In this document: piece after piece, positions 11,162 to 26,589 of the stretch
Position numbering within the stretch: position 1 is the first letter of the stretch
How the letters are laid out: each line of letters opens with the position of its first letter
Virus record (IMG/VR): IMGVR_UViG_2913147268_000002
Reading direction: 5' to 3' (one strand)
From: a virus
Taxonomy: Duplodnaviria > Heunggongvirae > Uroviricota > Caudoviricetes
DNA: 48,006 nt
Made by a program: the position numbers and the translations under genes
Notes under the pieces: generated by a model
Database searches by the model: none
What the model saw: the letters and a program-made list of their open reading frames with translations, nothing else
What the model was told of the DNA's origin: nothing

Positions 11162-11600
11162 AGCGACTCCTTGGTAATGTATACTCAGAGCCGATCAGCG
11201 AATATTGATCAGCTTCCATAGCGTCAGTGTCGTTGGTCTTTCCTCATCACAAGTTTGGTCACTTGTGATAAATCCGAATGGTTTGGTCGCCGTTCGGGGT
11301 AACTGGCCCGCCTTGTGCGGGTCTTTTGCTATCTAAAGGGTGCCGGTTACGTTTCCGGCGTCGTTATGTTTCCATTACGACCGTACAGGGCTGGTCAGGC
11401 CCGGGCTGGTCTTTCCTGTTTTGAGCTGGTCAGGCTCATGGTCAACGCTGGTCAGGCGTGGTACTTCCTCCGGTCTTTCCCTGGTGTCACGCTGCGGGTT
11501 TGGCCTCTCCTGTTGGGGACTCAGGCACAGCGATAAAACCTGGCTGTGTGAAAAAATGGCCCATCGTGCGGACTGGGCAAAGACTAAACACAGCAAATTG

Positions 11601-11690
11601 ATGATGGGCGCCCGGAATCGAACCGGGTAACGGGCAGGGAGTTCCCGTTAAACACCTGTTCACCACAACCGGGAGCGCACTCCGCCATTT
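11601..11690 (-). other. tRNA-like fragment (T-arm CCCGG-TTCGATT-CCGGG) inside a structured non-coding leader
   Basis: Minus strand reads ...CCCGGTTCGATTCCGGGCGCCCATCA. A canonical 7-nt T-loop with a perfect 5-bp stem, but no acceptor stem can be paired with the 5' side. Confidence 0.3.
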
Positions 11691-12029
11691 CAAAATTTAA
11701 CGACAAAGCTCAAAGTTGAGTCGATGAAGTGCGCTCTCGTGTTGTAGCCAGGACTCTTCCCTGGTGGTCACACCGTATCGCCTTGATGGTGAATCAATCG
11801 CTCATACCTGGCTGTGGCTTGCACATTCCGGCTACCTGCTATGGAGACAACGCGTTAAGGCTCCGCTTCCATCCAGACCGCTTCGACACATGTGCCATAT
11901 GCCGGTGAAGTCTTTCCCTCTGTCACCGTGTTGGCGCCGACGCGCAAAATTTGGTGCCGTCTTTCCGGCTGTCAGAACGTGTTTCTGAACAACTGCCGCT
12001 GGGTAAGCGTTGTTGATGAAAGTGACTTT

Positions 12030-12080
12030 ACAATTTGTATTTGTAATGGTCAATGTGTTTTTAAAAAATAATTTGTAGTG
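12030..12080 (-). promoter_or_regulatory. Candidate OL/PL operator-promoter region
   Basis: ATTTGTA-type half-sites (atttgtatttgtaatgg, aatttgtagtg) just beyond the repressor 3' end, matching those in the cI-cro intergenic region. Confidence 0.35.
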
Positions 12081-12171
12081 AGGGGCAAAAAAATATTCAC
12101 TGTGTAAAGGTGTTTTTGTGTTAGGGGAAAGTTGCATGCCAGCAGCGGCTGGCCTGGAAATTTGAACTGAA

Positions 12172-12585
12172 CTATTTTGTCTGGTTTTTGGCTTCAAGTA
12201 GTTCTTTTAGCAGTAGATCGAAGTGCTCTCTTTTTTCTTTTAGCTCATTGATTAATTTATTTTTTTCGCTCTCAGGCAGTCCTCTGAATAGTTGCAGTAG
12301 AGCCTGTTCTTGCGGGGTTAGTTCTTGATTGTAATTACCCGGGTGTAGTGTGGATTCATCCAAATATTCCCCTTCATTCATGAAGAAAAAATGAACAGGG
12401 TATCCGGTCACTTTTGCTAGCTTGTCTAATTTATCTTTTCTTGGAGTTACCCCATTACACCATGCCTGAACTGATTGAGCCGTAACCCCAATATGGCGAG
12501 CTAACTCAGATTGAGACCAGCCTAAGTCTTTTAGAATCCGTTGTAGTCGGCTAGCAAAAGCCATGTTTTTCGTTTTTGTGTTCAT
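12172..12585 (-). CDS. Phage repressor, HTH XRE family (RacR/cI-like), no S24 peptidase domain
   Basis: HTH at LGWSQSELARHIGVTAQSVQAW; short helical C-terminus without a Ser-Lys autocleavage domain; divergent from a Cro-like gene. Confidence 0.8.
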   Translation of the reverse strand: MNTKTKNMAFASRLQRILKDLGWSQSELARHIGVTAQSVQAWCNGVTPRKDKLDKLAKVTGYPVHFFFMNEGEYLDESTLHPGNYNQELTPQEQALLQLFRGLPESEKNKLINELKEKREHFDLLLKELLEAKNQTK

Positions 12586-12619
12586 ACCGTAAGGATACAA
12601 GGTTTAATTGTAGGGAGCA

Positions 12620-12662
12620 TTGCAAATATAATTTGTAATTACAGTTATTGTTTGTAATGATG
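12620..12662. promoter_or_regulatory. Candidate OR operators / divergent promoters
   Basis: Perfect 10-bp palindrome TGTAATTACA at 12634-12643 plus further TTTGTAAT repeats between the divergent repressor and cro-like genes. Confidence 0.45.
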
Positions 12663-12683: not shown

Positions 12684-12914
12684 ATGGATAAACAACTGCA
12701 AGACAAAATTCTTTCCGTAATGAGTCAATCCGAGTTAGGGCGGCGATTAGGGAAAAAACCACAAACGGTAAGCCTCTGGTTCAAAGGACGGGTTCCCGGT
12801 GAAGAGGTTTTGCGCACATCTGAAGCTCTTGAATGGCGCGTGACCCCTCATGATCTTAGACCGGATCTTTACCCAAACCCAGATGACAGCTTGCCTAAAA
12901 CGGAAGCAGCTTAA
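12684..12914 (+). CDS. Cro-like HTH regulator (YdaS-like)
   Basis: Start at ATG 12684 preceded by AAGGAG; HTH-like LGRRLGKKPQTVSLWFKG; position divergent from the repressor. Confidence 0.7.
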   Translation: MDKQLQDKILSVMSQSELGRRLGKKPQTVSLWFKGRVPGEEVLRTSEALEWRVTPHDLRPDLYPNPDDSLPKTEAA

Positions 12915-12972: not shown

Positions 12973-13449
12973 ATGGAAAACCAAGAGGAATTACAAAAAG
13001 AGATTTTGACCTGGGCGGCAAGGGCAGGGCAGGAACTCGTCACGATTGAAATCTGCCGGGCCTGGTTCAGTCAGGGACGCAATGATGAGTTGAGACTACA
13101 TGAATTTGAGGACGCGGACGGCAACGTGGACTGGAGAGCCATCAACAACAATCGGCAGAAAATCTTTCGCTGGTTACGTGGCGAGACAACGGCGGCGCGC
13201 CGAAAAACTCAGGTGCTGGCCAGTGTGATGAAAGCCGTGCTACCCGCAGAACGGCGGGCACGTCTGGAGTCGCCGGGCGATCCCGTTTTGCTGGCAACGC
13301 TGGCGGCAAAAGAAGGGGTGGAAGCGATTAACGCTGTACATCTCCACTTCGCGCCAGAGTTAACTATTCAGGAAATTGACGAAGCAATAGCGGCGCTGGT
13401 AGCGACGCGAGGAGCAGTGATACGCACTGCGCAAGACCACCATGCATGA
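12973..13449 (+). CDS. YdaT-like / CII-like regulatory protein (putative)
   Basis: 158 aa directly after the cro-like gene, as in Rac-type immunity regions; assignment by position and size. Confidence 0.5.
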   Translation: MENQEELQKEILTWAARAGQELVTIEICRAWFSQGRNDELRLHEFEDADGNVDWRAINNNRQKIFRWLRGETTAARRKTQVLASVMKAVLPAERRARLESPGDPVLLATLAAKEGVEAINAVHLHFAPELTIQEIDEAIAALVATRGAVIRTAQDHHA

Positions 13450-15908: not shown

Positions 15909-16319
15909 ATGACCACCACTCCAGGCAAATTAGAGTACCCGTCGGACAAAGGACACATAGACGACGGTAAAAACTATCTCGACGTCATTTTGTGGAATAT
16001 GAACGTCGGGCCACGTGCGCGCACTCGCGCGGTTTTTGTGCCAAGACCTAAAGCAGGCAATTTTTCAACCCCTGCTAAGCCTGCCCGTCAGGCATCCGTA
16101 GCCGCAGCGCCAGCAGTGAAACGTAAGGGCAAAACGCACACCGGGATCGCGATTCGCAGAAATGGTGAGCGGCAAGTGAAACTCCACGAAACAGCGACAA
16201 CCTGGTGTGCCTCACCGCATGAAACTTACGACAAGATAACCGGGCAGCGCATTGGCGCGCCTGGTCGCTGCCGCCTGCTGCTGAGTTCCATCACTCCGAT
16301 AGCAAAGAAAGGGGCGTGA
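15909..16319 (+). CDS. Hypothetical protein (136 aa)
   Basis: Preceded by the same conserved element (cgcctgaccagcg...ccgaggaaagaccaATG); composition Arg/Pro-rich, so uncertain. Confidence 0.35.
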   Translation: MTTTPGKLEYPSDKGHIDDGKNYLDVILWNMNVGPRARTRAVFVPRPKAGNFSTPAKPARQASVAAAPAVKRKGKTHTGIAIRRNGERQVKLHETATTWCASPHETYDKITGQRIGAPGRCRLLLSSITPIAKKGA

Positions 16320-17495: not shown

Positions 17496-17719
17496 ATTGA
17501 CTTAGAAAAAGTCCGGGGCTATAGTTTCCGCGCAGCCGCAAAATCGGTTGCCGGGATTGGCGTCCCGGATATCTAAGTGACGCATAGCCGCGTTAGCGGT
17601 TTTTTTATGTGTTAGGCACGGCCACATTCGCATTATGGTGGGCTGTGTGGGGGCTTCTGTGGAAGCGCCGGGTTCACTTAGCCGGTTACGCCAACCCTGC
17701 ACAGCTCACCACCAGATGA

Positions 17720-18556
17720 TTGGCGTCGCTGGTGGTGATGAAAAAAACACTAAGTGAGGCCACTGCGATGACAGTCCAAATATCTGCGGAATCCCTTTCT
17801 CCGCTACATCATAACCAACTTCCCGTCATCACTACTGAATTGCTTGCCAGTTTGTATGGCACGGAAGTAAATGGTATCCAGCAAAACTTCAAGCGCAACA
17901 TCGCCAGATTTGTCGTAGGAAAGCATTTTTTTAAGCTGGAAGGTAATGAATTACGCGACTTCAAAAACAGACTGACAGATAGTCAGTCAGTTGCTAAACA
18001 TACCCGATCCCTCATTCTCTGGACAGAACGCGGCGCAGCTCGCCATGCCAAAATGCTGGAAACAGAACAGGCCTGGGAAGTTTTCGAAAAGCTGGAAGAT
18101 TGTTATTTTAGCCAGCGTCCAGAGAGGCGGAGTACAACTACCGATGACCGTACTCCCTTGCGTGATGCCGTTAATATACTGGTCGGCAAGAAAGGCATGA
18201 TGTATCCCGATGCCTACACCATGATTCATCAACGCTTCGCCGTCTCTCACATAGAACAACTGTCACAGACGCAAATGTTAGAGGCGATTGAATACATCCA
18301 CTGCCTGCTACTCGATGAAAATCACCCAACCATTCCAGATTTTTCTTTTATCACCACTATCAAAAATGGAAAAGTGACCGGGATGCGCCATGTTGCCAAA
18401 GGCGAACATCTGATGACCTTTGACGCTTTCAAAGAGATCGCTGAGCGGGCAGGGTATCTGGTGATCCACAGCGACAATCTGCGAAGTATGACACTGGATA
18501 AATTGATGGTAATGGGGAAAAAGTCGGCTATATCCGTTGCTAATTCAGCATTTTGA
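17720..18556 (+). CDS. ORF6N-domain protein, putative antirepressor
   Basis: N-terminal region LPVITTELLASLYGTEVNGIQQNFKRNIARF...LILWTERGAARHAKMLETEQAWEVFEKLED resembles the ORF6N/KilA-N-related domain of phage antirepressors; start uncertain (17720, 17738 or 17768). Confidence 0.6.
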   Translation: MASLVVMKKTLSEATAMTVQISAESLSPLHHNQLPVITTELLASLYGTEVNGIQQNFKRNIARFVVGKHFFKLEGNELRDFKNRLTDSQSVAKHTRSLILWTERGAARHAKMLETEQAWEVFEKLEDCYFSQRPERRSTTTDDRTPLRDAVNILVGKKGMMYPDAYTMIHQRFAVSHIEQLSQTQMLEAIEYIHCLLLDENHPTIPDFSFITTIKNGKVTGMRHVAKGEHLMTFDAFKEIAERAGYLVIHSDNLRSMTLDKLMVMGKKSAISVANSAF

Positions 18557-18584
18557 CAGGTTGTTTGGGGCGGAAATACTCTAT

Positions 18585-18662
18585 TTGCGCTTAAAAAGGT
18601 ATTTGACCACGACCAGCACGAGACCGAATACCTCTGTCAAAGTACCGCCCATATAAAACAGT
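18585..18662. repeat. Direct repeat copy 1 (about 78 bp, about 90% identical to 22006-22084)
   Basis: On the minus strand encodes MGGTLTEVFGLVLVVVKYLFKRK plus stop, a duplicate of the 3' end of the gene at 22003-22608. Confidence 0.85.
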
Positions 18663-18730: not shown

Positions 18731-19654
18731 TTATTGGTTTCTGAGGAAAGCGATTCTTGAAAGGGTCATTTGCGTCTGGCAGTCGACCATTTTCTTGACT
18801 TCAGCATCTGTTCCCTGCATTGAAACTTTACCGCACATAGCATCCTTAGTTTTGATCCACTGACGCTGAGAAGGCAGCAAATCTTTTTTCTTCGCCGGGG
18901 TTAACTTGCTCCAGACGGTACTCAAATCAGAGTCGGCATTCGCAAATGCCATTCGGGACTGATCAAGGTTGTCAGCTTTTTGCGGCTGAAGTTGTGCCTG
19001 TCTCTCTATTTGCTTCTCCGCCTCATACTTAGCCTGTTCTTGCGCCCTGAGTTGCACCTGTTGTTCCGCTTCAATTTGACTCTGTTGGGCATCCTTAGCC
19101 TGCTGGATTTTCTGCTGCTCAACGATCGGGGTGATAATGGAAAGCGATGTCAGTAAAGCGGCGCCCACTGATATCGGATTATCAGTAGAGGTTTTTACAA
19201 AAACGTTTTTCTGATCGTCGGTCGCCTGCACGGTGTAGGTGATACGTTTTGAAAAGGCGTTTGCGTTGTTCTCCAAAAACAGGCTTTCCATTTGCTTATC
19301 GAGATTACGATTAAAATTCTTTCTGTAAGCATCTGAAAGCTGGACGTACTCGTTCGCAGATAGAGTCATCGTCACGGTCCCTTCACAAGTTTTCATTGTG
19401 CTGCCCGTGTCACTTGATGTTGTGGAGATCTCAGAGATGGCTAGTTTGATCTTGTCCAGTGTGCTTCGTTTGGTCTGATTAGTGACATCAGGGTATTTAT
19501 CGACCTGTTCAGAGAGTCCTTCATAAGCAGATTTTTTTAATAAATCCATGAGAGCTGACTGGGTTATTTCCGAAGAACAACCGATCTCATCTTTTTTGTT
19601 ATCACAGCCTGTAAGGGCAATGGCGAGTAAGAGTACTGAGTATTTTAATCTCAT
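18731..19654 (-). CDS. Lipoprotein with C-terminal DUF1311 (LprI-like) domain
   Basis: Signal peptide plus lipobox (LLLAIALTGC); Gln/Glu-rich coiled region; C-terminus PSQRQWIKTKDAMCG...QMTLSRIAFL resembles DUF1311; RBS AAAGGGA. Confidence 0.7.
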   Translation of the reverse strand: MRLKYSVLLLAIALTGCDNKKDEIGCSSEITQSALMDLLKKSAYEGLSEQVDKYPDVTNQTKRSTLDKIKLAISEISTTSSDTGSTMKTCEGTVTMTLSANEYVQLSDAYRKNFNRNLDKQMESLFLENNANAFSKRITYTVQATDDQKNVFVKTSTDNPISVGAALLTSLSIITPIVEQQKIQQAKDAQQSQIEAEQQVQLRAQEQAKYEAEKQIERQAQLQPQKADNLDQSRMAFANADSDLSTVWSKLTPAKKKDLLPSQRQWIKTKDAMCGKVSMQGTDAEVKKMVDCQTQMTLSRIAFLRNQ

Positions 19655-20841
19655 GAATTCCCTTTAGAGTAAGGATTGGTTTTTAAGACGCGGTCTGTAA
19701 TCAGTCCCGAGAGCTACAGTAAACAACGCTGAGCACTGAACGCATCACAGGTAAGGTAAAAGGTGATATCGGCAAAGGCTGTGAAACCTTTAATTCAACA
19801 GATGGGAACGGTATGCGCAGGATCCTGTAACGACGCTCCCAAAACCGGAAACCTGTAAGGCATGTTTTCGCTGCTGAACTTAATATACGAACCTGCACTA
19901 TCATGAACATATTTTATATCGTTATACCCCGAGTGATTGTGCCCGGCAATGGATAGTGTCCTGGAGGAACTATTTCTACTGTAAAAGGTAGATATTTAAT
20001 TTCAGTTTTGAATTATTCCCTGCTGTTAATAACAATGGCTGTATATGGCACCGAGTAGGCATTTTTTCGCTTACTGAAGGGCAGCTGTGAGCGAGGAACA
20101 GACTTTCCCTACTTCGTTGAGAGTACACCTAGTACAATCAAGGCTAAATGATAAAAATATACAAAATATCATATTTATGATATATATAATGGCATTAATC
20201 TTATTCTTGGATTACGTTGAAAGGGTAATATTATATTTGTGTAACATAGTTTAGATAACAATGCCGTTATGGGGGGGGAAAGACATTTCAACATATTAGC
20301 TTTGTATCTAACGCTCATGTAGATCTCGATTTTGAACTTAAAGAACAATTATTTTTTAGAGAGCAAGGTATTTTTGGGGAACAAAAACATAAAGTAATGG
20401 AGAGAGGAGAATGTATCAAAAAATCATCGATTTAATTTAGATTGTCCGTATAGTTGGGGGTAAGTCGAATCGCTGGGCTACATGGAATATTGTGTCAAGT
20501 AAAAATATATTTCAATCTTGCAATAACCGATTGTTGAAAATAATGTCAAATCTTAATGGTGAATGGGGAGAATATAATAAACATGAGTCGATATTATGCA
20601 AATGGATTTAAATATTTTATACCCGAAGACATAGGGTTTCGAGAGTTCGATGAGACTACTTTGAATGCTTTCGAATTTGCTGGCTAAAACATATAGGTTA
20701 TATCTTACATCTGTTTGTAATGGAGCGTAGATGCGACAAGCTACACCATAATAATCATATTATGATATATTGTTAAGTTGTTATGGCATTAAATAAAATT
20801 ATGTCATTTTGTTAACCAAGCAAGAATCAAAGGACTTTTAG

Positions 20842-21540
20842 ATGGGTACGGCATTAATTTCAAGCTTTATTAGTGGTGCAATAGCTATAATCTCTATTGC
20901 TATATCTACTTATAATCAGAATAGAATAAACAAGCTCAATGAATCACTGGATGTAAGGAGAAAACATCAGTACTATATTGAACCGTTAATTCGCTCAGCT
21001 TCAGACTTACAAAGCCGTATTTATAATATATTAGAATTGGGGTTCATTGAAGAGTTTTATCATAATGGGAATAAGCGCCAACAAGATTATGTTATCAACA
21101 ATACTGTTTTTCTTTTTTCCCAGTTTTTTGCATGGACAGAAGCTGCCCGCATAGACATTCAATACCTTAGCCTAGAAAAAAATAAAAAAATGAGGGAGTT
21201 TATTAGATTACAGAACAATATTAACTCATTAATCCAAACAGACGTCTTTGGTCAGTATTTTATGTTTTTCATAGGAGAGCAGAGAGCTATTGCAGAAAAG
21301 ATGCTGATATCAACAGATACTGGATTTGATTGCATAGGTTACGGCAGTTTCACAAAGGAAAATTGCTTTATCAATGAGCCATTTTTTTTAGATTTAAACA
21401 ATGAAGTGATAAATATGACAAGAGATATCGGAATTTATAAAGAAAGGCTAATCAGAATACAGCACGCGTTAATCGATTTAATTAATTTTCTTGATCCTGG
21501 CATGATTCGATTTGACGGAAAAAAATATGGAAAAATATAA
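20842..21540 (+). CDS. Membrane-anchored hypothetical protein (232 aa) in AT-rich cargo island
   Basis: N-terminal TM helix (TALISSFISGAIAIISIAISTY) followed by a soluble domain with no family I recognise; RBS AAAGGA; own downstream 12-bp-stem hairpin. Confidence 0.65.
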   Translation: MGTALISSFISGAIAIISIAISTYNQNRINKLNESLDVRRKHQYYIEPLIRSASDLQSRIYNILELGFIEEFYHNGNKRQQDYVINNTVFLFSQFFAWTEAARIDIQYLSLEKNKKMREFIRLQNNINSLIQTDVFGQYFMFFIGEQRAIAEKMLISTDTGFDCIGYGSFTKENCFINEPFFLDLNNEVINMTRDIGIYKERLIRIQHALIDLINFLDPGMIRFDGKKYGKI

Positions 21541-22002: not shown

Positions 22003-22608
22003 TTACTTGCGTTTAAAAAGGTATTTTGTCACGACCAGCACGAGGCCGAATACCTCTGTCAAAGTACCGCCCATGTACAACTGTAGTGTTAAATCCTCAA
22101 ATTCCAGCTTACCTGCGCCGTCGGCAATAAATACACCATTCATTATCAGAAGTTGGAAAGCAAGGATAATCAGGAACCATTTCCCGTATCGTTTTTTTAG
22201 AGCGATTTCTGCTTCAAAATCTTTGTTGTTGAGTTGTTTGCGCTCATGCTCGGTATCAAGTGAATTCACCTGTTTCACAGATGTGAACTCGGTCAAGATT
22301 TTACTCTCAGTACGGGTGACTTGTTGAGAGGGTGTAGCAGTTGGAATTCTTTTGCTAGACGCAGCTACAGCCATTTTGCGAGCTTCGGCAGCTCTTTTTC
22401 TGGCTATTCCGCGAATACGGACAGCCGTTTTTTTGGGGGCGTGCGAAACCTTTGGCTGAGGTGAAGCTTCGTCAGGAGACTGAACCGGAGTTTCATCGTC
22501 CTCCGGCTCAACCTCTTCTGCTAACTGACGGTGTAGGTTGAGGGAATCCTTCAGTCTGCGTGCTACTTCCTGTTTGAAACGGCTGTTAAAATCGTCATCC
22601 GATGGCAT
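22003..22608 (-). CDS. Membrane protein (201 aa), charged N-terminal region and two C-terminal hydrophobic helices
   Basis: WFLIILAFQLLIMNGVFIA and GGTLTEVFGLVLVVTKYLF; starts 10 nt after the ImmA-like stop, so probably co-transcribed. Confidence 0.6.
   Translation of the reverse strand: MPSDDDFNSRFKQEVARRLKDSLNLHRQLAEEVEPEDDETPVQSPDEASPQPKVSHAPKKTAVRIRGIARKRAAEARKMAVAASSKRIPTATPSQQVTRTESKILTEFTSVKQVNSLDTEHERKQLNNKDFEAEIALKKRYGKWFLIILAFQLLIMNGVFIADGAGKLEFEDLTLQLYMGGTLTEVFGLVLVVTKYLFKRK
22006..22084. repeat. Direct repeat copy 2
   Basis: Matches 18585-18662; here it is the genuine 3' end of the 201-aa gene. Confidence 0.85.
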
Positions 22609-22617
22609 TTTAAAGCG

Positions 22618-23106
22618 TTACCCCAACCTCAAGTTCTTTAAACGATAAGTCATCGCATCGTCAGATACGCCAAAATAATGCGCCATTATATAACTTGGTT
22701 GACCGTCAGCGTGCAGTTTTCTGACCTCATCTACCGGCATCAGAAGTTCTGCTGCGAACTTGTTTGCAAAAATTTCATCAGGATGCGTTCCGGCGCTTGC
22801 GGTTTCGCCACGTAAATCAACGTACTCATATTCATCGCTATGCGATGCTTGCCGGGCGATGTAATGCCCCAACTCATGCCCACATGAAAAACGTTGACGA
22901 ACTTTGTTGTCATCACTGTTTAGAAAGATCGCTGGATCTTGATCTTTTTGTTTAATCAGTGCGCCAGAAACTTTCCCAGGAAGATCGGTAATAAAAACAT
23001 CTAATCCCATGTCGTGAGCAATTTTCGCTGGATCAACAGGGAAACCACGCCCGCACCAGAACGTGTCCAGCACTCGCCGGGCGTGCTCTCTTGGGTTGGT
23101 AGCCAT
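22618..23106 (-). CDS. ImmA/IrrE-family zinc metallopeptidase (COG2856-like)
   Basis: HEXXH in FSCGHELGHYI and downstream EIFANKFAAELLMP motif; strong RBS GGAGGA. Confidence 0.8.
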   Translation of the reverse strand: MATNPREHARRVLDTFWCGRGFPVDPAKIAHDMGLDVFITDLPGKVSGALIKQKDQDPAIFLNSDDNKVRQRFSCGHELGHYIARQASHSDEYEYVDLRGETASAGTHPDEIFANKFAAELLMPVDEVRKLHADGQPSYIMAHYFGVSDDAMTYRLKNLRLG

Positions 23107-23504
23107 AGCTCCTCCAGTTACTGCATTACGATTATTGGTTGAAATATAGACAGCATGTTCCGTACCACATTCCTGTAAAAGTGCAAATTCTGCACTTCTG
23201 GTACGATATTAACTGTTAGTAGTAAAGTCTTCCAGATAAATCACTTTAAAATCTTGTGAATTGCTTGCTTTTTACGCTGTATTGTGGATGGTTCAATGTT
23301 TCCAGTAAAAACATACATGATAATCATGAGTTTAGTGTTTTTTTAGGCGTCTATATGTTTCTGGAAAATACAGGTCTAACCTGATCTTATCGTTGAGATT
23401 TTTTGTACTCAGTATGCGTGAACGATTCGACCAGGTGACTGTGTACGTGAAGAAGACCGCCCTTAATATTTTAAATGTGCAACCCCTCAGAAGAGGGGCT
23501 ACTC

Positions 23505-24623: not shown

Positions 24624-24774
24624 TGACCATAAACGGTTTAATCCCCTATAAAACCGTTTAATAAAATTCACGACGTGAATATAATTGTTCATTATTCCCT
24701 CATTGTATTTGGCGTTATGACAAATGCCATAAAATACTGTATAAATATACAGGTTGTGGCATTGGGGGGAAGAC

Positions 24775-25031: not shown

Positions 25032-25628
25032 ATGGCGCAGCATTCATTTATCAGGGTATCCGGCGGTTCGCTAATACCCGCGACACCAGACACGCAACGC
25101 TGGTTGACTGAACGAGTCAAACCAGGTGCTGTTGTGTATGCAGATTTCAAACAGGCGCGTAATCCCGCGTTTCATCGTAAATTTTTCTCACTTCTCAACC
25201 TGGGCTTTGATTACTGGCATCCGTCCGGAGGGGCTATTTCTCCTGCGGAGCGCGAACTGGTTCACGGCTACGTTAAGTTACTGGCGTATTACGGTGGACA
25301 CGGTGATGTCATGGCAGAGCTGGCTGATCAGTATCTTCTCGATGAGTCGGAAAAGCGCGCGGGGAGTATCAGTGCGGTGAAGTCGTTCGAGGCGTTTCGC
25401 GCATGGGCGATTATGGAAGCTGGGTTTTATGACGTTCATCAGATGCCAGACGGCAGTTTGATGCGCGTACCTCGTTCAATCTCGTTTGCAGCGATGGACG
25501 ATCTTGAGTTCGGTCAACTGTATTCAGCCGTTTTAGATGTGCTGTGGAATTATATTTTGTTCCGCACATTTGCCTCTCAGGAGGCCGCTGAAAATGCCGC
25601 CGCGCAGCTGCTGGATTACACATCATGA
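25032..25628 (+). CDS. Conserved lambdoid nin-region protein (DUF1367-like)
   Basis: 198 aa; resembles proteins found upstream of Q in lambdoid prophages; recalled, not searched. Confidence 0.55.
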   Translation: MAQHSFIRVSGGSLIPATPDTQRWLTERVKPGAVVYADFKQARNPAFHRKFFSLLNLGFDYWHPSGGAISPAERELVHGYVKLLAYYGGHGDVMAELADQYLLDESEKRAGSISAVKSFEAFRAWAIMEAGFYDVHQMPDGSLMRVPRSISFAAMDDLEFGQLYSAVLDVLWNYILFRTFASQEAAENAAAQLLDYTS

Positions 25629-25918
25629 AAAAAATCGACCTGAGAAAAGCTGCACGCAGTCGCGCTTGTACTGTGCGTATCCCCGGTGTGTGCAATCACA
25701 ATCCTGAAACCAGCGTACTGGCTCATTATCGTCTCGCCGGAACGTGCGGCACAGCCATCAAACCTCACGATATGCAGGGCGCTATCGCCTGCAGTGCGTG
25801 TCACGATGCCATCGACGGACGTACAAAAACGGATTACGAGCACGACTCATTGTTGTTGATGCACGCTGAGGGAGTTTTCAGAACACTGGCTATCTGGCGC
25901 GATGAGGAGTTTATCTGA
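25625..25918 (+). CDS. Cys-rich small protein (DUF1364-like)
   Basis: 97 aa with Cys/His cluster (CTVRIPGVCNHNPE...CSACHDAIDG); ATGA overlap with neighbours. Confidence 0.5.
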   Translation: MKKIDLRKAARSRACTVRIPGVCNHNPETSVLAHYRLAGTCGTAIKPHDMQGAIACSACHDAIDGRTKTDYEHDSLLLMHAEGVFRTLAIWRDEEFI

Positions 25919-26589
25919 TGAGTAACGAGTATTTATTGGAATATACCCGCATAAAACTGCGCGCTGCATTGCGGGATTTGTCTGGTGGTTCTAAGGGGCA
26001 ACTGGAAGCATTGTGTGAGCACCCACCGGCAGACAAAAACGCATACCCACGCAAACATATTCACCGTGTGCAGCTGGAGGACCGGACCGTTGATGCTCTG
26101 GTTACGCCAGTTTACGCTCTGGAAAGTTTCAGCAGACGTCGCCCCGCGCCGCCGATGAGTGATTTTGAATTTGCTGATTCATCCTGGCGGCGTTCTGTGA
26201 ACTCGCTGGATGCAAGTCAGCAAGCGTGGTTGCGTTATTGCTACGGTGGTAACCTGGCATTCAAACACCAAACAGCTATTTGTGAGGCTGTCTGGAGTCG
26301 CTATAAAGGAAACATCCCCGCGTCAACTCAGAGAAAAGTAGTTAAGCGCCTGCTTTCGTTGGTGTGGTTGTCCGTGCAGGCGGTCGCAGCAGCAAATAAA
26401 CGCGAGGATTTTAAGGAGATGGCCGGATCTACCCTAGCAGGAATGCTGTCGGTTTCTCGTTCCACCTGGTGCGAAACATACTCCCTGCACTGGGTAGGAA
26501 TGAAAGAGGCGGTGAGAGCACTTGATGAAGTGGCACTTCTTGCAACTTTGCATCATTATCAGAACCATTTAGACGACGTTTGCGTATAA
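25918..26589 (+). CDS. Putative late-gene regulator (antiterminator Q-like)
   Basis: 223 aa immediately upstream of the lysis cassette; assignment by position. Confidence 0.45.
   Translation: MSNEYLLEYTRIKLRAALRDLSGGSKGQLEALCEHPPADKNAYPRKHIHRVQLEDRTVDALVTPVYALESFSRRRPAPPMSDFEFADSSWRRSVNSLDASQQAWLRYCYGGNLAFKHQTAICEAVWSRYKGNIPASTQRKVVKRLLSLVWLSVQAVAAANKREDFKEMAGSTLAGMLSVSRSTWCETYSLHWVGMKEAVRALDEVALLATLHHYQNHLDDVCV

Follow-up and report, generated by a model that had tools for sequence, protein, structure and literature searches.

The known systems nearest to the switch studied here are those of the Salmonella Gifsy prophages. Gifsy repressors, including GtgR, remain uncleaved during induction (Lemire et al. 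2011, PMC3121763); their inactivation is due to small antirepressors, whose genes lie beyond the immunity region and are directly repressed by LexA (PMC3121763). In this group, GfoA and GfhA act on the heteroimmune repressors GfoR and GfhR (PMC3121763). For DicA, relief comes from a small protein, Rem (Ragunathan et al. 2023, PMC10448788); FsoA and Rem are validated small antirepressors of GtgR and DicA, respectively (PMC3121763, PMC10448788). Here, the prophage repressor gene of a Caudoviricetes virus was analysed in a stretch of 48,006 nucleotides (nt; IMG/VR record IMGVR_UViG_2913147268_000002), called the window in the following, which is a lambdoid prophage, apparently intact, adjoining a tRNA-Leu gene. 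The repressor resembles GtgR and DicA, and a protein of 59 amino acids (aa), encoded 12 kb away from it and outside the immunity region, is probably its SOS-linked antirepressor.

The open reading frame (ORF) of the repressor extends to position 12600 and gives 142 aa from a TTG start. The RefSeq annotation, taken from identical DNA in Escherichia coli SK1144, starts it at M13 (Table 1), and other sources use M6 (ATG at 12585), which gives 137 aa. Pfam matches were restricted to Cro/CI-type helix-turn-helix (HTH) families, namely HTH_3 at residues 19–70 (E 1.9e-12), HTH_26, HTH_31 and Phage_CI_repr. Peptidase_S24 was not matched in Pfam, PHROG or NCBIfam, and no Ala-Gly dipeptide is found in the sequence. 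The AlphaFold2 model, obtained with a shallow alignment, is all-helical with a predicted local distance difference test score (pLDDT) of 76.6: five HTH helices (residues 2–61) are followed by a low-confidence, disordered linker (about 62–83) and C-terminal helices at 84–94 and 98–128. Beyond the HTH, the protein has only about 65 residues, predicted to be helical. The preliminary description of this DNA, which gave an HTH repressor of about 135 aa lacking an S24 domain, is confirmed by the 130–142 aa of the possible starts, the restriction of Pfam matches to HTH families and the all-helical model. It had also judged RecA-stimulated self-cleavage unlikely, and this judgement held. No evidence supporting self-cleavage was found; with neither S24 nor Ala-Gly, so little beyond the HTH, and a homologue, GtgR, that stays uncleaved on induction, it is barely credible. 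Since the repressor has no autocleavage domain, induction most likely depends on an accessory factor, as had been proposed.

The repressor aligns end to end with GtgR of Gifsy-2 (and of the LT2 Gifsy-1), at 33% over 129 aa (E 5e-23), and with DicA of the Qin prophage, at 31% over 131 aa (E 1e-15). Its best NCBIfam match was 'transcriptional repressor DicA' (NF007257, residues 3–129), and since the score of 70 bits is below the cutoff of 101 bits, the protein is classified as a relative of DicA and not DicA itself. The three repressors have in common a C-terminal motif, LxPxExxLLxLFxxLPESE, which reads LTPQEQALLQLFRGLPESEK in the window protein. A word-index search for homologues returned seven proteins. 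Foldseek with the repressor model gave weak, HTH-driven matches only, CapH and DdrO among them; the top one was SinR/SinI (E 1e-3), which was used as an analogy only, of a small protein capturing an HTH repressor by its helical domain. From its sequence and model, the protein is assigned to the Gifsy/DicA class of lysogeny repressors, namely short, predicted to be non-cleavable, and made of an HTH plus a small helical C-terminal domain.

A search for LexA sites pointed to the 59-aa ORF. The pattern CTGT-N8-ACAG occurs exactly once in the 48 kb, at 24737–24752. The corresponding LexA box, TACTGTATAAATATACAGGT (24735–24754), has three mismatches to the 20-mer consensus and is the sole match in the window within three mismatches, a level reached in none of 100 shuffled sequences. 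It covers the −10 element of a promoter and lies 38 nt upstream of the ATG of the 59-aa ORF. The preliminary description had named an ORF6N-type antirepressor gene and an ImmA-like protease gene as possible triggers, and a LexA box was to be looked for upstream of each; neither has one, and the single site precedes an ORF which it had not listed. When one mismatch was allowed, 16 matches were found against 13 expected, none of them near the ORF6N or the ImmA-like gene. No alternative SOS input was visible in the window by the LexA-box scans.

The 59-aa protein matches the family phrog_340, which also contains FsoA (E 1.1e-26) and Rem (E 4.4e-21). The fsoA and gftA genes were identified from the published primers of Lemire et al. 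(PMC3121763): FsoA is STM0898.2n of Fels-1, with 78 aa, and GftA is STM1020.1n of Gifsy-2, with 73 aa. Direct comparison of the 59-aa protein with FsoA gave 41% over 39 aa (BLASTP E 3e-8), and its C-terminus, …AGYTITPPDA, resembles the end of GfoA as encoded by the primer, …LGYRVTPPSDI. The AlphaFold2 model consists of a beta-hairpin and a helix (pLDDT 79.8); Foldseek with this model returned nothing meaningful (best E-value 1.2), and sequence searches of the PDB gave no solved relative of the antirepressor family or of the ORF6N protein. Homologues of the 59-aa protein numbered seven in the word-index search and 16 in an exhaustive single-sequence search. In the representative library, two larger proteins, P0020 (481 aa) and P0025 (680 aa), contain four to five tandem stretches similar to it.

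The neighbourhood of the gene is also that of a Gifsy antirepressor. An irsA/NinB-like gene lies directly downstream, followed by a DUF1364 gene and then Q (25918–26589). STM1020, the irsA homologue, follows gftA in Gifsy-2, so the order LexA box, antirepressor, irsA, … Q is syntenic with the Gifsy unit minus dinI. Because it encodes an FsoA/Rem homologue in the syntenic position of the Gifsy antirepressors, the 59-aa ORF is the best candidate for the SOS trigger.

Conservation was followed in 73 IMG/VR loci encoding relatives. In the close clade (at least 73% identity), a perfect box is located 36–38 nt upstream of the gene in all 12 loci for which upstream sequence exists; the two arms, CTGT and ACAG, never differ, and the spacer varies (ATAAATAT, ATAAATGT, ATAAATGC, ATATATAT). 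The −35 element is conserved among the relatives as well, and the box is found in every locus spanning the repressor to the antirepressor. More distant clades had no box within 1.5 kb, which fits FsoA being under phage-repressor control. In one locus (L035, 3926–3941), a perfect LexA box lies 169 nt upstream of a distant antirepressor relative (38%), with a 10-codon mini-ORF in between.

The pairing of repressor and antirepressor was then compared between loci. In E. coli A42, isolated from a marsupial, the repressor, Cro and 59-aa proteins are identical to those of the window and the intervening cargo is replaced, and locus L086 combines an identical repressor with a 76%-identical antirepressor and the box. 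L092 and L083/L016 are heteroimmune: their DicA-like repressor is 52% identical to DicA and 32% to the window protein and keeps the C-terminal LLxLFxxLPESEK motif. A LexA box accompanies the antirepressor gene in all of them; this gene is identical to the 59-aa gene in L092 and 98% identical to it in L083/L016. The association of one antirepressor with two immunities is consistent with, although not proof of, recognition of the conserved C-terminal domain.

Several observations weigh against the 59-aa protein as the antirepressor of this repressor. Its direct similarity to FsoA is modest (16/39 residues), BLAST detected none to Rem, and GftA falls into a different family, phrog_4847. Two exact-match scans of IMG/VR with the primers for GfoA returned nothing, so that only the literature and the termini encoded by the primers speak for homology to GfoA. 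The operon has no dinI gene, unlike those of the Gifsy phages. Because a second promoter-like site (24658–24685) is present upstream of the box, LexA might act as a roadblock instead of occluding the promoter. Lastly, the occurrence of the identical antirepressor with a different repressor leaves the cognate pairing unproven by co-inheritance.

This last observation would also suit a protein that is not the inducer of its own prophage and acts on the repressors of others or has another SOS role, with induction taking a different route or hardly occurring, and derepression arising from spontaneous flipping as reported for DicA/DicC. Members of this antirepressor family are able to act in trans, on repressors that are not their cognate ones, FsoA does not seem to take part in the induction of Fels-1, its own phage (PMC3121763), and DicA-controlled promoters flip independently of Rem and RecA (PMC10448788). 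Such an explanation is nonetheless quite unlikely here: the position of the 59-aa gene is exactly that taken by the cognate antirepressor genes in Gifsy, it was kept together with the repressor at 100% identity across a change of host, and no other SOS input is visible in the window by the LexA-box scans.

Table 1. Positions of the repressor, the candidate antirepressors and associated elements in the window.
Feature	Position	Strand	Evidence and remarks
Putative left operators	12028..12046 (strong), 12060..12078 (weak)	.	Downstream of the repressor gene; proposed from the sequence pattern
Prophage repressor	12172..12564	-	RefSeq start M13, 130 aa, WP_000853106.1, 'helix-turn-helix domain-containing protein'
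Putative right operators	12620..12638 and 12639..12657	.	Two abutting 19-bp TTACAAA-N5-TTTGTAA sites between the repressor and cro-like genes
Cro-like gene, YdaS family	12684..12914	+	Pfam YdaS_toxin, 35.1 bits (cutoff 30); divergent from the repressor
YdaT/CII-like regulator	12973..13449	+	Pfam YdaT_toxin, 57.4 bits (cutoff 21); phrog_163 E 7e-42
Second small FsoA/Rem-like gene, 73 aa	17274..17495	+	phrog_340 E 3.5e-21; BLASTP to FsoA E 4e-6; early-right region
RNA gate before the ORF6N gene	17497..17757	+	Rfam matches above gathering scores; promoter/terminator scan
Promoter-like site	17497-17525	+	Promoter scan
c4-a1b1 targets	17519-17571	+	Rfam, 52.9 bits
isrK	17532-17606	+	Rfam, 80.4 bits; terminator hairpin 17586-17601
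C4 antisense RNA	17631-17716	+	Rfam, 75.2 bits
40-codon ORF	17635-17757	+	Stops 11 nt before the ORF6N ATG (17768), no overlap
ORF6N/AnrP-like antirepressor	17768..18556 (ORF from 17720)	+	262 aa; Pfam ORF6N E 1e-21; phrog_4792 'anti-repressor' E 1.5e-165
201-aa protein with two transmembrane helices	22003-22608	-	Paired with the peptidase
ImmA/CapP-like M78 peptidase	22618-23106	-	Peptidase_M78 E 7.7e-18; capP E 2.4e-25
Promoter with LexA box	24717..24754	+	−35 ATGACA 24717-24722, 17-nt spacer, −10 TATAAA 24740-24745
Candidate LexA-controlled antirepressor, 59 aa	24775..24954	+	WP_001025459.1, annotated 'hypothetical'; phrog_340 E 1.6e-20
irsA/NinB-like gene	25032..25628	+	Directly downstream of the 59-aa gene; phrog_319; 56% to Gifsy-2 STM1020

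The ORF6N-type gene of the preliminary description is indeed present (Table 1). Its product is 66% identical to Gifsy-1 AnrP (STM2616) over 137 N-terminal aa (E 4e-63), and its C-terminus, at about residues 197–238, is FsoA/Rem-like (phrog_340 E 4.6e-12; BLASTP to FsoA E 7e-9). The phrog_340 match at the C-terminus was also obtained with the ORF6N variant of A42, and no FsoA/Rem-like domain was found in AnrP by the PHROG scan. Upstream of the gene are isrK, c4-a1b1 and C4 elements, three RNA elements that also precede anrP in Gifsy-1, in identical order. There, the operon is transcribed and anrP stays untranslated until the small RNA IsrK acts in trans, after which AnrP activates the antQ operon (PMC4825925); stationary phase, low Mg2+ and oxidative stress are the conditions in which IsrK accumulates (PMC4825925). 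Since the gene of the window lies behind the isrK/C4 elements, it is read as RNA-gated and not LexA-gated, and the ORF6N protein as a credible antirepressor that probably provides a second, SOS-independent input.

The same protein could instead be the primary trigger, binding the repressor so that its synthesis decides induction. The strong match to phrog_4792 'anti-repressor', the similarity to AnrP, which turns on the antQ operon, the FsoA/Rem-like C-terminal domain and the occurrence of the gene in all relatives examined speak for this possibility. It is considered unlikely all the same: a LexA-like box is missing near the gene even with one mismatch, gating by isrK/C4 suits a conditional input independent of SOS, and Gifsy-1 has both modules and there the small LexA-controlled antirepressor mediates the SOS response (PMC3121763). 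Thus, of the earlier suggestion that the ORF6N protein could be the induction trigger, the role of a plausible secondary antirepressor is retained and that of the primary one is not.

A second small FsoA/Rem-like gene, encoding 73 aa, lies just before the RNA elements. No LexA box was found near it, and in RefSeq it is unannotated, the stretch being left without a gene. A small phrog_340 gene directly precedes an ORF6N gene in many unrelated loci (L037, L041, L043, L046, L049-L052, L057, L069-L076), and in Fels-1-like loci an ORF6N-domain gene is likewise found downstream of fsoA, which points to a conserved two-gene module. In total, the window has three copies of the FsoA/Rem-like domain, under what appear to be three controls: LexA for the 59-aa protein, presumably the prophage repressor for the 73-aa protein, and the RNA gate for the ORF6N fusion. 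If the conserved helical domain at the C-terminus of DicA/Gifsy-type repressors is the target of all three, the result would be a multi-input switch and a hub of cross-talk among heteroimmune prophages, a possibility that is put forward tentatively. If true, this would also give a domain-level account of target engagement by the large ORF6N antirepressors.

The ImmA-like protease gene was also where the preliminary description had placed it, paired with a gene for a 201-aa protein which has a disordered N-terminus and two predicted C-terminal membrane helices. No gene for an HTH partner was found adjoining the CapP-like peptidase; the pair may be a defence or abortive-infection module. As an inducer, the metalloprotease would cleave the repressor in the manner of ImmA/ImmR, CapP/CapH or IrrE/DdrO. 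An M78 peptidase is present, such enzymes are known to act on short HTH repressors whose C-terminal domain is small and helical, the repressor of the window is of the same architecture class, and CapH and DdrO were among its weak Foldseek matches. However, the gene lies at a distance of 10 kb from the repressor and on the opposite strand, and the membrane protein is its partner. Among the region-spanning loci, L085, L087 and L092 have the peptidase gene, and A42, L086 and L083 lack it; A42 and L086 carry a 100% identical repressor, and L092 has the gene with a different one. Since its presence is independent of repressor type, while the LexA–antirepressor module is found in all these loci, the ImmA-like gene is regarded as accessory cargo, unlikely to be part of the switch. 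In L092, a perfect CTGTAAAAAAATACAG is found at 15935–15950, about 330 nt upstream of the peptidase gene. At 23361–23373 of the window there is only a remnant, CTGGAAAATACAG, which is 3 nt shorter than the L092 site, so that the ImmA-like gene has no LexA box here. Cleavage of the repressor by this protease is very unlikely, and the gene, which had been proposed as a trigger, was rejected as the inducer.

The immunity region itself follows in part the RacR/YdaS/YdaT layout that had been ascribed to it. The gene order and the Pfam matches agree with this layout, and the Cro-like and YdaT-like proteins are 36–37% identical to YdaS and YdaT of Rac. The repressor does not belong to it: its similarity to RacR is limited to the HTH (13/33 residues, E 4e-5). 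Orthology with RacR was rejected, as the match covers only 33 HTH residues and DicA and GtgR are far closer. We infer that the repressor binds 19-bp TTACAAA-N5-TTTGTAA operators on both sides of its own gene. The pattern has nine matches in the window compared with 2.6 expected, and three of the best five (two mismatches or fewer) are at 12028, 12620 and 12639. A leftward promoter-like site, TTGACC-17-TAAAGT (12053–12025), overlaps the putative left operators. Homology between the window and L092 stops at about 11960 and restarts at about 12932, which corresponds to an immunity cassette replaced in the heteroimmune relative; all the proposed operator sites (12028, 12060, 12620 and 12639) are located within this cassette. 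The replication genes come after the YdaT/CII-like gene. On the other side, a segment of about 1 kb (11162–12171) that separates the left-operon genes from the repressor gene has no annotated gene and no Rfam match; of it, the stretch from 11162 to about 11959 is 97% conserved in the heteroimmune relative and hence lies outside the immunity cassette.

Domain content, homologies, the LexA box with its conservation, the synteny and the RNA elements are features observed directly, and the following course of events is proposed from them. In the lysogen, LexA would occupy the box over the −10 of the promoter and the repressor its putative operators. After DNA damage, LexA would be cleaved and the 59-aa protein would accumulate. 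By analogy with GfoA, GftA and FsoA, and with the action of Rem on DicA, it would then bind the repressor, possibly at the C-terminal helical domain, and take it off the operators. The 73-aa and ORF6N proteins probably strengthen this induction, contribute an input independent of SOS, or act on other prophages in trans.

The prophage was found in 449 of 5,426 complete E. coli genomes (about 8%), nearly always at 99% identity or higher, and many of these genomes carry ST131 strain names in their records. A 27-kb fragment of the same prophage is deposited as Escherichia phage vB_EcoM-705R4 (L081, ON470624.1) and labelled 'complete genome'. This record begins within the ImmA-like gene and is devoid of the immunity and replication regions, so it gives no independent information on the pairing; the partial record is named in a paper on CRISPR in urological E. 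coli. Two segments of the window matched annotated CRISPR arrays of other E. coli genomes: 19619–19662 (93% over 44 nt) and 22866–22900 (100% over 35 nt). JX21CE8 is an example of a strain with an array sequence matching the ImmA-like gene. From these matches, the prophage family appears to be a CRISPR target.

Between 20000 and 22000, the window contains a low-GC island, with a GC content of 0.31–0.36 compared with about 0.50 around it. A 232-aa ORF in this island (20842–21540) gave only a weak PADLOC match (RTasTM of DRT systems, E 1.8e-5). A direct repeat of 80 bp, with about 90% identity, occurs at 18582–18662, just past the ORF6N gene, and at 22004–22084, as the 3' end of the 201-aa gene. 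The two copies flank an LprI-like gene and the low-GC island, which suggests that the cargo between them was inserted by recombination.

With its probable wiring to the SOS response by way of a LexA-controlled antirepressor, the prophage is predicted to be inducible by DNA-damaging antibiotics; many of the genomes that carry it are named in the records as strains of ST131, a pandemic clone. From the same wiring, induction is expected to be reversible, and a single small protein could co-induce relatives that are heteroimmune. In current annotation the switch is invisible, since the 59-aa protein is 'hypothetical' everywhere and its 73-aa paralogue is unannotated. In addition, the link between FsoA/Rem-type proteins and the C-terminus of the ORF6N/AnrP-type protein is a testable lead on how large antirepressors work.

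The mechanism class is already established by Gifsy, 186 Tum, N15 AntC and DicA/Rem, and the prophage is an uncharacterised member of it; no paper describing its switch was found in a literature search. The closest case is that of Gifsy-1, -2 and -3 (GfoR, GtgR and GfhR with GfoA, GftA and GfhA, PMC3121763). Both have a short, S24-less repressor, homologous end to end (33% to GtgR), and a small gene for an antirepressor, a candidate one here, which lies between the replication genes and Q and so not in the immunity region, directly followed by an irsA homologue (56%). The spacing of the LexA box to the first ATG is also alike, at 37 nt to dinI in Gifsy-2 and 38 nt here, and in both groups an antirepressor is common to heteroimmune relatives, as with GfoA and GfhA. 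They differ in that dinI separates the box from the antirepressor gene in Gifsy, GftA belongs to phrog_4847 and the present protein to phrog_340, and the prophage described here has E. coli as host.

With FsoA of Fels-1 and Rem of Qin, the common element is phrog_340, to which the 59-aa ORF, the 73-aa ORF and the ORF6N C-terminus are all related, and no characterised repressors are closer to that of the window than GtgR and DicA, which these two antirepressors target. Pairwise identity is low, however, being 41% over 39 aa to FsoA and undetectable to Rem, and control of FsoA lies with the Fels-1 repressor and not with LexA, whereas the 59-aa gene has a LexA box. The RNA-gated module has its counterparts in isrK-orf45-anrP of Gifsy-1 and in immI of P1/P7, where a C4 antisense RNA controls ant, with the same order of isrK, c4-a1b1 and C4 upstream of the ORF6N antirepressor. 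Here it is found in the early-right region and not downstream of Q, and the small ORF ends 11 nt before the ORF6N start, whereas it overlaps in Gifsy-1. AnrP itself has 187 aa compared with 262 aa here, and the FsoA/Rem-like domain in which the present protein ends was not seen in AnrP by the PHROG scan.

Compared with the Rac prophage, the same arrangement of a divergent repressor gene followed by a Cro-like gene of the YdaS family and a YdaT-family gene is found, but RacR is longer and its alignment does not contain the shared C-terminal motif. Phages 186 and N15 follow the same logic with Tum and AntC, in which a repressor that is non-cleavable becomes inactivated by an antirepressor whose gene is repressed by LexA (PMC3121763); phage type and repressor family are different. 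The prophage goes mildly beyond these known cases in having no dinI, three differently wired copies of the antirepressor domain, and one of them fused to an AnrP-type protein.

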